A stretch of 64,000 nt of DNA from Dehalococcoidia bacterium (lineage in GTDB: Bacteria; Chloroflexota; Dehalococcoidia; Lucifugimonadales; VXLM01). Of the stretch, positions 16,655-21,587 are shown piece after piece. Under the pieces are notes generated by a model that was not told where the DNA came from, did not search any database, and saw only the letters and a list, made by a program, of their open reading frames with translations. The DNA lies in NCBI GenBank assembly GCA_034421575.1, contig DAOUKG010000017.1:19886-83885 (forward strand), given 5' to 3'. Positions within the stretch are counted from its first letter, which is position 1. Each line of letters begins with the position of its first letter. The translations under genes were made by a program, and so were the position numbers.

Positions 16655-16808
16655 ATACCAATTCGTTTTGAATACACCATGAATTGATGGTGACACCACC
16701 ACGTCATCCGTCATTCCGGCGTAGAGCTTGCCCCGTACTCCGATACGGGGCCGGAATCCAGAAAGGCTGGTCAGTCGACAATACGGCCTCATCACACCTA
16801 ATTATTGG
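16655..16808 (+). repeat. element X copy 1 (~150 nt; CCAATT...AATTGG-type ends)
   Basis: It runs ataccaattcgttttgaatacaccatgaattg...cgtcattccggcg[nested hairpin]ccggaatccagaaag...aatacggcctcatcacacctaattattgg. It overlaps the stop of the 16798-17364 gene. Confidence 0.75.
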
Positions 16809-17364
16809 TTCGGGGCTTGGTCGCCTTCACCCTATACTGGCGATTGACTTCCGGGGACGGCTCCCCACACATGAGACCGGCGGACTCCAGCAGATCGAGC
16901 ATCTCGTCCGACGGTGCTCGATCGACCCATTGTACGACCATCAACCTGCCCCCGGGCTTGAGCAGCCGCGCGAGGTCAAGGGCCAGGGCCTGCTTCTCTT
17001 CTCTCGACTCCCGATAGTGAAACACCAGCGTACACAGGACGTGGTCTGCCACTCCCTCCGGCAACGGAGCTTCCGGCCCATCGTTGAGCAGTGACGTGAC
17101 GTTGGTGAGTCCCGCATCCGCTGCTCTCGACTCAACCAGTGACACCATGCCTTCATGGATGTCCAGTGCGTACACCATGCCGGTGGGGCCGACTGTTTCA
17201 GCTGCCGGAAGGGTCACGAGACCCGGACCGCAGCCGTAGTCCACGACTGTCATTCCGGGCCGAAGCCCTGCATCATCCAAGAGTTCTACAGGCGTCAGCC
17301 CGTTGAGTCTCCGTTCCGGGTCCAGCAGACTTGCCGTCCACTCATCGCTGTATCGATTGCTCAT
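16798..17364 (-). CDS. class I SAM-dependent methyltransferase
   Basis: SAM-binding motif VVDYGCGPGLVT. I chose ATG 17364 as the start. The last ~3 codons and the stop lie inside repeat element X copy 1. Confidence 0.75.
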   Translation of the reverse strand: MSNRYSDEWTASLLDPERRLNGLTPVELLDDAGLRPGMTVVDYGCGPGLVTLPAAETVGPTGMVYALDIHEGMVSLVESRAADAGLTNVTSLLNDGPEAPLPEGVADHVLCTLVFHYRESREEKQALALDLARLLKPGGRLMVVQWVDRAPSDEMLDLLESAGLMCGEPSPEVNRQYRVKATKPRTNN

Positions 17365-17395
17365 CCAAGTGACTCCGTCCTGTGAGATGGGACTA

Positions 17396-17545
17396 ATACC
17401 AATTCGTTTTAACCACACCGTGAATTGGCTGTGACACAACCAACTTATCCGTCATTCCGGCGTAGAGCTTGCCCCGTACTCCGATACGGGGCCGGAGTCC
17501 AGAAAGCTCAATCAGCAAGAATACGGCCTCATCACACTCAATTGG
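17396..17545 (+). repeat. element X copy 2
   Basis: It has the same architecture and orientation as copy 1. It lies immediately upstream of the start of the same gene. Confidence 0.75.
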
Positions 17546-17680
17546 TGCTGCTAATCCAAGCGATAAAGAGATTTGGGGCCAGCCCCGTATCGTGGTACGG
17601 GGTGACGTTCCTTCGCCGGTATGACGGCATTTCAAAGGTCTCTCTCTCCGCAGGAATGGCAGGGGTTGTGCAAGGGTCTC

Positions 17681-17938
17681 CTAAAACGGATCAGGCTCGG
17701 CGGGTTCAGGTTGCGACTCTCCGTAGGCCGTCTGGATCTGGGTAATCTTCAGTTCGGCCTTTGACAGGACGTCGCCGCAGAAGTTCGCAAGCCGCATCCC
17801 CCTCTCGAAGAGCGCGGTCGTCTCGTTCAGCGAGAGCTCACCCGCCTCCATGGCCCGGACCGTCTCTTCGAGCTGCTCCAACGCCTGCTCAAACGTGAGG
17901 TCTTTGAATTCGTCTTCGGCCTTGGTCATATCCTGCAT
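17681..17938 (-). CDS. xseB: exodeoxyribonuclease VII small subunit
   Basis: 85 aa with FEQALEQLEETVRAMEAGELSLNETTALFERG, the typical XseB motif. It lies directly downstream of xseA. Confidence 0.85.
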   Translation of the reverse strand: MQDMTKAEDEFKDLTFEQALEQLEETVRAMEAGELSLNETTALFERGMRLANFCGDVLSKAELKITQIQTAYGESQPEPAEPDPF

Positions 17939-17959: not shown

Positions 17960-19222
17960 TTAGTCATTGAAGAGGTCCATGCTCGTCTGTCCGCTTGCGG
18001 GCGACTTCCTCGATTTAGTCCGTCGCCGCGTGGCCGGACGAGGTGCGTTCCCGGTCACCTGCGCTTTGAAGTCGCCGTCTGCCACCGTCACTCCGATGAG
18101 GTCGCCATCACCCACTTGAGACGGAGAAGTGACAACCCTGCTTCCACTATGGACGATGGCGTACCCCCGCGACAACGTATCACTGGGACTCAGGGATTCC
18201 AGCTTACCCTTAAGACCGTTCACACGCTCGCCCGCGACCTGCATTGTTCCGCGCAGATGTCCTGCCGTCGTCCGCATCATGTCGTCGATCCGAAGCCGGA
18301 GGGTGTCAAAGTCCGGCAGGCCCCGGTGGAGGCGTGGCCGGAGCGCGTCCAACTCCCAGCGCGCCCCTTCGAGGCGGCCCATGATGATGGAATCCAGCGA
18401 CCTGCGGTGCATCCCGATCTCGGCGAACAGCTCCGCCTGATCGGGCATGACGAGCTCCGCCGCGGCCGACGGCGTCGGCGCTCGAACGTCGGCAACCAGG
18501 TCGGCAATGGAGTAGTCGGTCTCATGGCCGATGGCGCTGACGACCGGCGTCTTGCTCTTGAAGATCGCCCGTGCCACGTCCTCCTCGTTGAACGGCCAGA
18601 GGTCCTCCAGGGAGCCGCCCCCGCGCGCGACGATGACCACGTCGATGTCATCGAGACGTTCCAGCGCGTCGAACGCCGCGACGATCGTGCCGACAGCCTC
18701 CTGGCCCTGCACCAATGCGGGCGCGAGGACAAGCTCCACGGCGGGGTAGCGGCGGGCCGTCACGTTCTGAATGTCGTGCCACACCGAACCCGTGGGCGAC
18801 GTGACGACCCCCACTCGCACGGGGAATCTGGGCAGCGGCCGCTTGCGCGACGGCTCGAACAGGCCCTCTTTTTCCAGCCGTAGCTTCAGCTCTTCCAGCT
18901 TCAGCTGCAGCTCGCCCACGCCCTCGGGCTGCACGATGTCGGCGATGAGTTGAAGATCGCCGCGAGGCTCGTAGAGCGCAATACGACCGTGGGCGATCAC
19001 GGCCCCGCCCTCCTCGATCAGGTCGGCTCCGACTCCGCCGCCCCGAAACATCACGCAGCGCAGCGTTGCGCTCCCATCGCGCAGGCTGAAGTACGAGTGC
19101 CCCGCCGCTGAGCGCGTCAGATTCCCGACCTCGCCCTGCACCCACACGTTCTGCAGGACGGGGTCTTCGCGGAGTATCTCCGTGAGGTACTTCGCCACCT
19201 CTGATACTGAGTAGACGGCCAT
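17960..19222 (-). CDS. xseA: exodeoxyribonuclease VII large subunit
   Basis: The N-terminal OB-fold context is YSVSEVAKYLTEILREDPVLQNVWVQGEVGN..RSAAGHSYFSLRD. The stretch ARGGGSLEDLWPFNEE is conserved in XseA. Confidence 0.9.
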   Translation of the reverse strand: MAVYSVSEVAKYLTEILREDPVLQNVWVQGEVGNLTRSAAGHSYFSLRDGSATLRCVMFRGGGVGADLIEEGGAVIAHGRIALYEPRGDLQLIADIVQPEGVGELQLKLEELKLRLEKEGLFEPSRKRPLPRFPVRVGVVTSPTGSVWHDIQNVTARRYPAVELVLAPALVQGQEAVGTIVAAFDALERLDDIDVVIVARGGGSLEDLWPFNEEDVARAIFKSKTPVVSAIGHETDYSIADLVADVRAPTPSAAAELVMPDQAELFAEIGMHRRSLDSIIMGRLEGARWELDALRPRLHRGLPDFDTLRLRIDDMMRTTAGHLRGTMQVAGERVNGLKGKLESLSPSDTLSRGYAIVHSGSRVVTSPSQVGDGDLIGVTVADGDFKAQVTGNAPRPATRRRTKSRKSPASGQTSMDLFND

Positions 19223-19231
19223 GCAATCGCC

Positions 19232-19360
19232 TTACGTTATGACTGTTCCCAACTCTTTCAACCGCGCTACCAGGTACTCCTGCGGTCGATCTCCCTTGAT
19301 GCTGTTGCAGTGGCCGCAGAGCGGTTCTTTTGCGTTATAGCGTATGTACAACAAGATGCC
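19232..19360 (-). pseudogene. 42-codon remnant ending ...EPLCGHCNSIKGDRPQEYLVARLKELG; suspected C-terminal fragment of the disrupted methyltransferase or HNH-tail protein
   Basis: My own translation of the minus strand. It is in the same frame as the HNH ORF and immediately after its TGA. The CxxCNxxKGDR tail is HNH-like. My recollection that some DNA methyltransferases end this way is unverified. Confidence 0.3.
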
Positions 19361-20446
19361 TCACTCATTCGTATTCGCCATGAGTTCTATCTGCTTGTAG
19401 GACATTCCTGTAAGCCTAAAGCCGCACTCACCGTACTCACACCAGCACTCGGTCGCACCGTTAGAGTAGTTCCCATTTCGAGAATGTGTGTGCTGCCGCC
19501 GCTTCAGTTCGATGATGTCACCTGCATAGGCACCAACAAGCTCTCTCACGTCTTTGAGATCAGCATCATTCCTGATTGCCAAAACAATCTCCCCCACTTC
19601 TTCATCCAATGCGTACCAGCGGCCCCATATATGGTCGTTCAAAGAGGACGCGAAGCCAGAGAGTCCGCCGAAGTTCCCTGCTGTCCAAGTGTCTACAGAA
19701 AAATAACGTCGGCATGGTTTGCATCCCCATACGAATGCATGGTTAAGCTCAACGTCGTAAGTGATAAGTTTGTCCTCTCTACCATACACCTTCTCCTTGA
19801 CCCGATTAACGGCCTCCCCGCACCACGGACAACTGACTGCATCACTGTCGCCCCAAATCAAACTCCCCACGATTGGGGAGAGTACAGCGTTTACCTTGTC
19901 GGTGATCTGGTCTATTCCACGCCGGCGATCCAGATATTCACGAAGTCGGTCATCAGAACCGTTGTAGTTCTTCTTGCGGGCATTACAGGTCTTGCAGGTG
20001 GCTTGAAGGTTAGAGAGGACATTCGTGCCCCCTGCCGAAACGGGAACCCTGTGGTCGATTGCTAGTGGCTCGGCCCGCAGGTCACATCCGCAGTAAACGC
20101 ACCGAAAGTTGTCTCGCTCCAAAACTTCTGACCGCTTTGTTGCTGAGACATACCGCATCTTCCGTCTTCGCTTTTGCTCAGCCTCCCAATCCCGGTCTCT
20201 CTGCTCTGCGTCAGCCTTTCCCTGAGAACCTACCGGATAGCAAGATGGTCTTCGGTAGGAACGGCCTTCCAAAATGTTTCTGATTGTAGCTGTGCTGACA
20301 TCATACTTTGATGCCAATACAGGAACTCTCACATCCATCAGAGGAACGGGGCAGTCGCTATACGACCTACTTCCGTTCAGTGCGAACGCTACCCTAATTT
20401 CAACAACTTCACTATCTTCAAGAATGCGTCCCAATTCTGCCTCCAA
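19361..20446 (-). CDS. HNH endonuclease-domain protein with N-terminal HTH-like and C-terminal Cys-rich regions
   Basis: HNH core RCVYCGCDL....IDHRVPVSAGGTNVLSNLQATCKTCNARK. HTH-like ASKYDVSTATIRNILEG. Zinc-ribbon-like CPWCG...CKPC. GC is visibly lower than in the flanks. Confidence 0.7.
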   Translation of the reverse strand: MEAELGRILEDSEVVEIRVAFALNGSRSYSDCPVPLMDVRVPVLASKYDVSTATIRNILEGRSYRRPSCYPVGSQGKADAEQRDRDWEAEQKRRRKMRYVSATKRSEVLERDNFRCVYCGCDLRAEPLAIDHRVPVSAGGTNVLSNLQATCKTCNARKKNYNGSDDRLREYLDRRRGIDQITDKVNAVLSPIVGSLIWGDSDAVSCPWCGEAVNRVKEKVYGREDKLITYDVELNHAFVWGCKPCRRYFSVDTWTAGNFGGLSGFASSLNDHIWGRWYALDEEVGEIVLAIRNDADLKDVRELVGAYAGDIIELKRRQHTHSRNGNYSNGATECWCEYGECGFRLTGMSYKQIELMANTNE

Positions 20447-20471
20447 ACAAAACCATAGACATTGCTACTCC

Positions 20472-20624
20472 CTATACGCTACAACGCAAAAGAACCCTCG
20501 TAGTCGCGTTGAAGTTGAACGGCGGATCGAGGTAGATCAAGTCCACCGACTCGGAGTTCAGGCCCCGCAGAATGTCAAGGTTCTCGCTCGTCCATATCGT
20601 CCTGTTCACGAAGTTTGCTGGCAT
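20472..20624 (-). pseudogene. N-terminal 50-codon fragment of an N4/N6 DNA methyltransferase
   Basis: MPANFVNRTIWTSENLDILRGLNSESVDLIYLDPPFNFNA..., where the DPPF motif follows the SAM-pocket loop. The fragment terminates about 10 codons later. Full-length enzymes are more than 250 aa. Confidence 0.65.
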
Positions 20625-20709
20625 GTGGGTATGATACTTAGAATGCGAACGGATGTCTAGGAACGGTACTCCATATTGGCGTCGCCCGTCCTCGACGCGC
20701 CGGATAAGA

Positions 20710-20717
20710 TGTATAAT
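20710..20717 (+). promoter_or_regulatory. candidate -10 box (TGTATAAT) upstream of the DUF104-like antitoxin
   Basis: tgtataat lies 35 nt upstream of ATG 20752. No clear -35 is present. Confidence 0.25.
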
Positions 20718-20751
20718 GGTTCCAGAGCTACATTCGCTAAGAGCGCGAACC

Positions 20752-21024
20752 ATGATAACCAACGTAAAGGCCACATACGCCAACGGCGCGCTTGTGCCGT
20801 TGCGGCCGCTCGACCTGGAAGAGGGCGCGGAAGTGACGGTGTCTGTGGAGGATGGCGCGCCCGTGAAAGATGCGCCCCCGGCCAAGCGGGGCTTGGCTGC
20901 AATCGTCGAGAGGGTCAAGGAAGCCCAGAAGTCCATGCCCCCGGATGCGTGGGATGACCTGCCAACCGATGGCGCTGAGAACTACAAGCACTACCTCTAC
21001 GGCTTCCCGAAGGAAAAGGATTGA
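20752..21024 (+). CDS. DUF104/AF2212-like antitoxin
   Basis: MITNVKATYANGALVPLRPLDLEEGAEVTVSVED matches the classic DUF104 N-terminus (xIEAxYENGVLKPLExLDLxEG). It overlaps the PIN gene by 4 nt. The ORF track starts it further upstream, at 20653. Confidence 0.7.
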   Translation: MITNVKATYANGALVPLRPLDLEEGAEVTVSVEDGAPVKDAPPAKRGLAAIVERVKEAQKSMPPDAWDDLPTDGAENYKHYLYGFPKEKD

Positions 21025-21449
21025 ACCGAACCCTTTTCGCAGACTCGGGCTACTGGATTGCGTTGTGGAACCCCGAAGATGCGCTGCACGATAGGGCGAT
21101 AACCCTTACAGAGGCTCTAAGGTCGTCCGCAGTCGTTACCACCCGGCTGGTCTTGATTGAGACTCTAAACTTCATGGCAGGGATGGGCCTCGCTCGGCGT
21201 AGGTACGCAGTCCGCATGGCGCAAGACTTGGAGGACGATCCCGACGTTGAGATAGTGCCACTGTCGGACGCTCAATTCAGAGCCGCGCTTGAGAGGTACG
21301 CCGCCCGACCTGACCAGCGATGGAGCGTCACCGACTGCGCCTGCTTCCTTGTCATGGAAGAGCGCGGCATGACCGATGCGCTTGCCCACGACCGCGATTT
21401 CGAGCAGGCCGGCTTCGCGCCCCTGCTCAGGAATAATCACCCGCGATAG
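21021..21449 (+). CDS. vapC: PIN-domain toxin (VapC family)
   Basis: 142 aa. It has the N-terminal LFADSGYWIAL motif and the distal ALAHDRDFEQAGF motif. It is coupled to the upstream antitoxin. Confidence 0.85.
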   Translation: MNRTLFADSGYWIALWNPEDALHDRAITLTEALRSSAVVTTRLVLIETLNFMAGMGLARRRYAVRMAQDLEDDPDVEIVPLSDAQFRAALERYAARPDQRWSVTDCACFLVMEERGMTDALAHDRDFEQAGFAPLLRNNHPR

Positions 21450-21587
21450 CGCACCCCGCCCCACAACGTCATTCCCGCGAAGGCGGGAATCTAAGCCCCT
21501 CTCTCGTTCGCAGGAGAGGACTGGAGCTTGCCCCGCACTTGATACGGGGGTGAGGGTAGGAGAGCGGAATTGCAGGCCGGAACGAGG

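Follow-up and report, generated by a model that had tools for sequence, protein, structure and literature searches.

A probable transposase-less IS6/IS26-type cassette carrying an HNH nuclease gene inside the remains of a methyltransferase–HNH gene in a Dehalococcoidia genome

The locus described here lies within a 64,000-nt stretch (the window, in whose positions all coordinates are given) of contig DAOUKG010000017.1, part of the metagenome-assembled genome of a Dehalococcoidia bacterium (GCA_034421575.1; a 3.35-Mb assembly in 82 contigs). At this locus, a gene for an HNH nuclease separates the two ends of a broken DNA methyltransferase gene. The 1174 bp at 19323–20496 are probably a mobile insertion cassette of the IS6/IS26 family of insertion sequences (IS)—one that lacks a transposase gene and carries the HNH gene as its passenger—lodged in the wreck of a gene for a methyltransferase–HNH fusion. 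The locus is ordinary transposon damage in an accessory islet, not nuclease homing, and activity of the HNH protein is not required to explain the insertion; the feature is real and is now largely explained. The arrangement reported in the initial annotation, an HNH open reading frame (ORF) between N- and C-terminal methyltransferase fragments, was recovered in all its elements:

19232–19321, minus strand: 3′ remnant of the methyltransferase–HNH gene, consisting of its last 29 codons and stop (LCGHCNSIKGDRPQEYLVARLKELGTVIT), the end of its HNH domain
19323–20496, minus strand: whole cassette, 1174 bp, comprising left repeat, leader with GGAGG, HNH ORF, 15-nt spacer, and right repeat
19323–19345, plus strand: right terminal inverted repeat, GGTTCTTTTGCGTTATAGCGTAT read on the plus strand
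19361–20446, minus strand: HNH nuclease gene, 361 aa from TTG 20446 or, likelier, 357 aa from TTG 20434
20474–20496, minus strand: left terminal inverted repeat, GGTTCTTTTGCGTTGTAGCGTAT read on the minus strand
20497–20624, minus strand: 5′ remnant of the methyltransferase–HNH gene, approximately 41–43 codons up to motif IV (DPPFN)

The HNH ORF is enclosed by a 23-nt inverted repeat, the arms of which are complementary at 22 of 23 positions, lie 27 nt 5′ of the start codon and 15 nt 3′ of the stop codon, and adjoin both methyltransferase fragments; by our own arithmetic, around 2e-6 such repeat pairs would be expected by chance in 2 kb. No transposase gene is present inside the cassette, in which the HNH gene is the sole ORF with a family hit, and the structure is that of a mobile insertion cassette (MIC): IS-type inverted repeats around a passenger gene, without a transposase. 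Base composition sets the same interval apart. The ORF had been described as AT-richer than its flanks, and the comparison with the genome mean that was set beforehand as a check upholds this, marking the DNA as foreign in composition: the GC content of 19323–20496 is 0.507, significantly below the 0.606 ± 0.029 obtained across the assembly in windows of 1174 bp (z = −3.4; within the lowest 0.5%), and the profile stands at 0.50–0.55 over 19200–20800 versus 0.60–0.68 on both sides.

The family assignment derives from the repeat ends. The tip of the repeat, the 11-mer GGTTCTTTTGC, occurs four times in the assembly, at both ends of the cassette and at both ends of the IS6-family IS on contig C27. 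The terminal-repeat consensus of the IS6/IS26 family is GGTTCTGTTGCAAA, accompanied by an 8-bp target duplication (Harmer and Hall 2019, PMC6807381; Varani et al. 2021, PMC7986276). The ends of the cassette, GGTTCTTTTGCGTT, start with GG, match this consensus at 10 of 14 positions, and qualify as terminal repeats of the family; the corresponding figures elsewhere are 13/14 for the C27 IS, 12/14 for the homologous locus L021, and 12/14 for a second cassette, on contig C15. The two further elements of this genome are as follows:

Contig C27, 24924–26508 (locus L150:602–2186): IS6-family IS, 1585 bp, the only one of the assembly
Contig C15, 1495–2160: second transposase-less cassette, 666 bp, with IS6-type ends (GGTTCTGTTGCACTTG...) and a perfect 8-bp duplication (CGGGAGAG)

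The C27 IS ends in 24-nt inverted repeats (GGTTCTTTTGCAAAATAGGGTTTC), is flanked by a perfect 8/8 target duplication (CGTCATTT), and carries a 161-aa ORF of no known family that overlaps (ATGA) a 335-aa transposase gene, whose product joins a zinc-finger N terminus to a PF13610 DDE_Tnp_IS240 domain (E 5.5e-18 / 1.7e-17). The C15 cassette contains a single ORF of ~120 aa, encoding a predicted membrane protein. Alongside one autonomous IS6-family IS, the genome therefore holds two cassettes that lack a transposase gene and have ends of matching type. The layout of the C27 IS resembles that of ISDsp3 of Dehalococcoides as described in the literature.

Both flanks of the cassette belong to a single protein family. 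On the 5′ side, the methyltransferase frame (20472–20624, minus strand) begins at ATG 20624, reads MPANFVNRTIWTSENLDILRGLNSESVDLIYLDPPFNFNATT, and reaches a stop at 20472, seven codons further on; it matches the methyltransferase models NF008572 (E 8e-6) and CcrM (E 2.6e-4). Of the 50 methyltransferase codons initially counted here, the first ~41–43 stand, whereas the rest (VLLRCSV*) is the translated left inverted repeat. On the 3′ side, the frame of the HNH ORF runs on directly after its TGA at 19361 for 42 codons (19232–19360, minus strand) to a TAA at 19232, nine bases before the start of xseA. Within this tail, the last 29 codons (LCGHCNSIKGDRPQEYLVARLKELGTVIT) are indeed methyltransferase-derived, but the first 13 (GILLYIRYNAKEP) are the translated right end of the cassette; nor does the tail come from a different HNH-tail or methyltransferase protein, as had been supposed, but from the same destroyed fusion. 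Methyltransferase homology stops within 5 nt of the left repeat and resumes 1 nt beyond the right one. Read-through of the TGA, which would join the HNH ORF to the in-frame tail, was considered and rejected: an identical ...TNE-TGA terminates the closest homologue, and the 13 codons that follow the TGA are inverted-repeat translation.

The identity of the destroyed gene emerged from a search with the 42-aa tail against 400 genomes of the phylum, in which 26 other genomes matched, at residues 12–40 of the query. The top hits, once extracted, were found at the C-terminal end of open frames mostly of 450–540 aa, and the intact proteins begin ...PNFANRTIWTGDNLDILRGLNSNCVDLIYLDPPFNSNRTY... and end ...DHLDNLQLLCGHCNRTKGDRPQEYLVNEL.... 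One of these, the L029 protein, comprises a PF01555 N6_N4_Mtase domain (E 1.9e-40, residues 29–377) followed by a PF01844 HNH domain (E 7e-14, residues 426–471). The N-terminal fragment of the window is identical to residues 13–50 of this protein at 31 of 38 positions and the tail to residues 467–493 at 18 of 27, so that the fragments are colinear with both ends of one intact protein; the result is similar for six others, and 368–425 residues are missing between the fragments across the seven. Since both fragments align to the ends of the same fusion proteins—as the initial claim of one broken methyltransferase required—the destroyed gene encoded a beta-class N4/N6 DNA methyltransferase that had an HNH domain of its own at the C terminus. 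Members of the intact family are 450–520 aa long and share with the window fragments an N terminus of the form NF(A/V)NRT.WTG.NLDILRG.NS..VDLIYLDPPFNSN and a C terminus of the form LQLLC..CN..KGDR.QEYL. Around 72 of ~450–500 codons survive, and the catalytic and S-adenosylmethionine-binding regions past motif IV are lost. The missing middle is present on no other contig of the assembly, the best other methyltransferases of which are 30–46% identical and have no HNH tail.

A further feature lies just 5′ of the remnant ATG:

20631–20659, minus strand: sigma-70-like promoter, TAGACA-17-TATCAT, 10/12, a consensus match only

The HNH gene may thus be transcribed from the predicted promoter of the dead methyltransferase gene. 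A 154-aa minus-strand ORF (20472–20936) extends the N-terminal fragment upstream and overlaps the antitoxin gene described below; it is almost certainly no gene. For annotation, the 154-aa and 40-aa ORFs flanking the cassette are to be treated as pseudogene pieces. The methyltransferase–HNH family is also multicopy in some Chloroflexota: of genomes G256 and G305 (loci L028 and L030), the former contains three identical C-terminal pieces of 217 aa and the latter two copies of 451 aa, which suggests that a repeated or mobile element carries the family.

Relatives of the passenger gene point to the same kind of element. Around 20 full-length homologues of the HNH protein, at 45–73% identity, were found, all of them in metagenome assemblies and two in Dehalococcoidia genome bins; no homologue was present in 60 relatives searched, and a search of 400 genomes of the class gave one distant homologue at 35% identity. 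Approximately 14 loci of the family were examined for genomic context and flanking repeats, with an ungapped and gapped inverted-repeat search at 13 of the family's loci. At L021/L022 (57% amino acid identity), the gene is placed between housekeeping genes—AIM24 genes and a DAO-family oxidoreductase gene—and is enclosed by 28–32-nt inverted repeats (GGGTTCTGTCGCATTTCGGCGGGG... / GGGTTCTGTTGCGATTTGGCGGGG..., with tips GGGTTCTGTCGCATTTCGG... / GGGTTCTGTTGCGATTTGG...). The sequences flanking these repeats, CTTGGATG and CTCGGATG, form an 8-bp target duplication at 7/8, and the locus is a simple IS6-type insertion. Past mobility is attested by this single case at an unrelated site, for a cassette whose protein is 57% identical to that of the window.

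The closest homologue, L017 (73% identical in amino acids and 77% in nucleotides), is the sister of the window copy in the family tree. Its HNH gene has been split by an IS66-family element, and its HNH stop overlaps, at ATGAGTGA, the start of an IS6-family transposase gene, the product of which has a PF13610 domain (E 4e-16) and is 41% identical to the C27 transposase. The window retains the same ATGAGTGA, with the right repeat following 15 nt after the stop codon, and its 3′ end is as expected if an L017-like element had lost its transposase gene. IS6-type ends accordingly occur on two separate branches of the HNH family tree, that of the window copy with L017 and that of L021.

A history consistent with these data can be proposed. 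The ancestor would have been an IS with the HNH gene placed before the transposase gene, as at L017, from which the transposase gene was then lost. The resulting cassette would move by means of an IS6-family transposase supplied in trans, for which the C27 element is a candidate source. No target duplication is present at the window cassette, whose flanks, actacgag and gctctgcg, derive from positions of the ancestral gene ~1.1–1.3 kb apart (residues ~50 and ~467). IS6-type elements move by replicative cointegrate formation, and their intramolecular transposition gives deletions (PMC7986276). Because there is no duplication and 368–425 codons are missing, the absent ~1.1–1.3 kb may have been removed by intramolecular replicative transposition—an IS26-type adjacent deletion—or, as another route to the same product, by recombination between two co-oriented copies of the cassette. 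Of the two events first put forward for this locus, a larger insertion plus deletion is the one that is supported.

Several points weigh against an IS6/IS26-type cassette. At repeat position 7, the window and C27 copies have T, where the consensus of the short bacterial IS6 members has a near-invariant G (PMC6807381). The repeats of the cassette and the C27 IS differ past the first 11 nt, so mobilisation by the C27 transposase is not assured. There is no second copy of the cassette in its own genome, and no empty-site allele was seen; in this 82-contig metagenome-assembled genome, moreover, the cassette junctions are known from the assembly alone. A search for the ends of the L017 element failed to define them, the 18-nt pair at 2924/7402 being 78% complementary and without a duplication. 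Finally, IS6-type repeats were found at only 2 of the ~14 loci examined, those of the window and of L021/L022, and at none of the five hsdM-linked loci or several others.

The HNH protein itself is well conserved. The 357-aa start at TTG 20434 is preferred because it sits behind GGAGG and homologues begin MGRIL at the equivalent place. The protein consists of N-terminal helix-turn-helix-like helices, an HNH core (PF01844, E 2.2e-11, aa 116–160), a Cys4 ribbon (CPWC...CxxC), and a C-terminal RRRHxH...CWCEYG module, and all four segments are kept along the full length of the family. The residues of the beta-beta-alpha-metal core—C112, C115, D127, H128, N151, and C147/C150—are invariant or nearly so in homologues. 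Ratios of nonsynonymous to synonymous substitution rates of 0.21–0.28 in six comparisons (0.21 versus L017) show the signature of purifying selection on the gene. In a confident AlphaFold model, with a predicted local distance difference test (pLDDT) score of 83, the HNH core is the one part that has counterparts among PDB or viral folds, the structural matches being 4h9d and EcoKMcrA; the C-terminal half had no match in either search. Likewise, no PADLOC model matched the whole protein, and the HNH-core hits (DpdF, PtuB, and type II restriction endonuclease models; best E 9e-8) covered ~55–80 residues. Overall, the HNH protein is conserved and under selection, and its additional domains have folds without a match.

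Genomic context offers further hints at function. At L018, L019, L020, L146, and L210, the HNH gene follows hsdM, by 4–5 nt in four of the five, within type I restriction operons in which AbiE, TIR-domain, and other genes precede hsdS. The variable defence genes between hsdM and hsdS at these loci are the HNH gene, AbiEi/AbiEii, a ThsB-like TIR gene, pP_pnuc_1, and DUF3644, and their hsdM is unusually long, at 706 aa. The remaining homologues adjoin IS elements, serine recombinases, an integrase islet, DUF6791-ThiF/DUF6527 genes, or GmrSD_C and M78-peptidase genes. At L020, a repeat-like stretch 5′ of the gene (15/20) lost significance once multiple testing was taken into account. When the cassette flanks were compared at the DNA level with 11 homologous loci, L017 alone shared sequence outside the ORF.

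From the repeated occurrence of the family in type I restriction operons and other defence islands, the protein can be predicted to serve a defence or selfish function; it is most likely a passenger DNA nuclease and not the agent of the insertion. Another reading takes the nuclease for a defence enzyme of the restriction type, which may depend on modification, and holds that loss of the methyltransferase was selected by incompatibility between the two and was not a random accident. The recurrence between hsdM and hsdS alongside AbiE and TIR-domain genes, the neighbouring GmrSD_C and ThiF/DUF6527 genes, and the resemblance of the HNH core to McrA-type enzymes all speak for it. That resemblance is, however, confined to the generic HNH core (TM-score versus query ≤0.2), no PADLOC model spans the protein, and the gene coexists with intact HsdM in five loci; this reading is unlikely.

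Still less probable is a role for the HNH protein in the workings of the element, either as a second-strand nuclease acting with the DDE transposase or as a recogniser of the repeats via its helix-turn-helix. The translational coupling of the HNH and transposase genes at L017, the IS6-type ends on two branches of the tree, the conserved helix-turn-helix-like N terminus, and purifying selection would all suit such a partnership. Most family members nevertheless have no IS6 ends or transposase nearby, the C27 IS and the C15 cassette carry unrelated passengers at the same position, and the 60 relatives searched lack the protein. A functional partner of this IS6 branch would both recognise the terminal repeats, via its N-terminal helix-turn-helix, and contribute a second DNA-cleaving activity, in a role comparable to that of TnsA in Tn7, and this too must be rated improbable; if true, it would alter the movement of a normally copy-in, cointegrate-forming transposon, and a transposase-less cassette could persist or home.

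Homing was the other possibility raised in the initial annotation: a free-standing homing-type HNH endonuclease would have cut the methyltransferase gene and been copied into the break, with collateral deletion. The protein does have an HNH core, phage HNH homing endonucleases rank among the nearest structures to this core, and several homologues adjoin methyltransferase genes (hsdM in five loci, N6_Mtase in L025). Against this, IS6-type repeats surround the ORF and match those of an IS resident in the genome, one homologue has the 8-bp duplication typical of transposition, and the L017 gene overlaps a transposase gene. Homologues occupy many unrelated sites—the ~14 loci span at least six unrelated contexts, with no recurrent target gene of the kind that homing implies—and hsdM, where it stands beside the gene, is intact and not interrupted. 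There is no signature of intron RNA or of an in-frame intein, the ORF being out of frame with the 5′ fragment and the host gene short of ~400 codons; an Rfam search gave no match at E ≤ 0.1; and JGI metagenome contigs and viral contigs yielded HNH-core hits only, with no full-length family member. Homing is therefore very improbable. An assembly artefact, in which two identical cassettes in direct orientation around an intact gene middle collapsed to give a false deletion, is just as hard to credit, for although a 1.2-kb piece could have dropped out of an 82-contig assembly with shortest contigs of ~2.4 kb, no contig carries the middle at matching identity, two same-orientation insertions of a single-copy cassette in one gene would be needed, and the methyltransferase gene is disrupted either way.

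The IS6/IS26-type cassette and its broken host gene form part of a larger accessory block:

19242–21582, no strand: accessory islet of ~2.3 kb, comprising the methyltransferase wreck, the cassette, and a toxin–antitoxin pair
20752–21024, plus strand: AF2212-like antitoxin gene (PF01954, E 4.8e-7)
21021–21449, plus strand: PIN/VapC-like toxin gene (PF01850, E 6.7e-10)

In the window, xseA reaches 19241 and efp starts from 21583, whereas in six same-genus genomes (xseA 87–97% identical) the two genes are ~118 nt apart and 19242–21582 has no counterpart. Because this block is absent from all six, the methyltransferase–HNH gene and the AF2212-like/PIN pair are regarded as a strain-specific accessory islet, and the methyltransferase–HNH gene, which had been taken for a resident, is horizontally acquired. 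The islet has a GC content of 0.550; no integrase or flanking direct repeats of it were seen. The toxin–antitoxin pair is a neighbour within the islet but outside the cassette; a paralogous pair is present on contig C57, and the pair does not adjoin methyltransferase–HNH genes elsewhere. The antitoxin start is likelier at 20752 than at that of the long ORF 20653–21024 (plus strand), in which the AF2212-like domain begins at residue 36. Elsewhere in the window, spurious ORFs at 16684 and 17425 (region 16684–17745) encode near-identical peptides (…SFRRRACPVLRYGAG(I/V)QK…) and mark two copies of a short repeated element around a methyltransferase-like gene at 16798–17439; pieces of this element also occur in intergenic regions of relatives.

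Among known systems, MICs (e.g., MIC231 of the Bacillus cereus group) and miniature inverted-repeat transposable elements (MITEs) consist of IS ends around transposase-less DNA, with a cognate autonomous IS in the genome; MICs carry passengers, and those described derive from IS231, of the IS4 family. The window cassette is similar in that IS ends enclose a passenger without a transposase, and its candidate cognate is the C27 IS, the repeats of which agree with those of the cassette over the first 11 nt and differ in the remainder; it departs from described MICs in its IS6-type ends and its HNH nuclease passenger. With phage free-standing HNH homing endonucleases it has in common a stand-alone, lower-GC HNH gene that interrupts another gene, but it is bounded by transposon ends and has neither a conserved target gene nor full-length relatives in viral contigs. 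The likeness to the IS6/IS26 family (IS26, IS257/IS431, ISDsp3) comprises terminal repeats beginning GGTTCT.TTGC; an 8-bp target duplication at related copies (8/8 for the C27 IS and the C15 cassette, 7/8 for L021), though not at the window cassette; and a single copy without duplication beside a deletion, the classical outcome of intramolecular replicative transposition. The differences are that the window cassette has no transposase gene and has T, not G, at position 7, and that the related transposases are long and zinc-finger-bearing, at 295–335 aa versus 220–250 aa for the IS26 type. A 2021 review of the IS6 family lists only two ORF-less MITEs and one passenger-carrying IS (PMC7986276), the latter being ISDsp3 of Dehalococcoides sp. 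BAV1, of the same class (PMC7986276, PMC6807381).

Three related IS6 forms thus coexist in a single genome—a passenger-carrying IS and two cassettes, one for an HNH nuclease and one for a membrane protein—in a family catalogued almost without such members. A checkable transposon account replaces the story of a homing nuclease that killed a methyltransferase. IS6/IS26-type elements are best known from antibiotic-resistance plasmids; here, such a cassette in an uncultivated Dehalococcoidia carries a nuclease gene and erodes a restriction-modification-like gene, and the small, conserved HNH family to which that nuclease belongs, recurrent between hsdM and hsdS, is a candidate defence gene.

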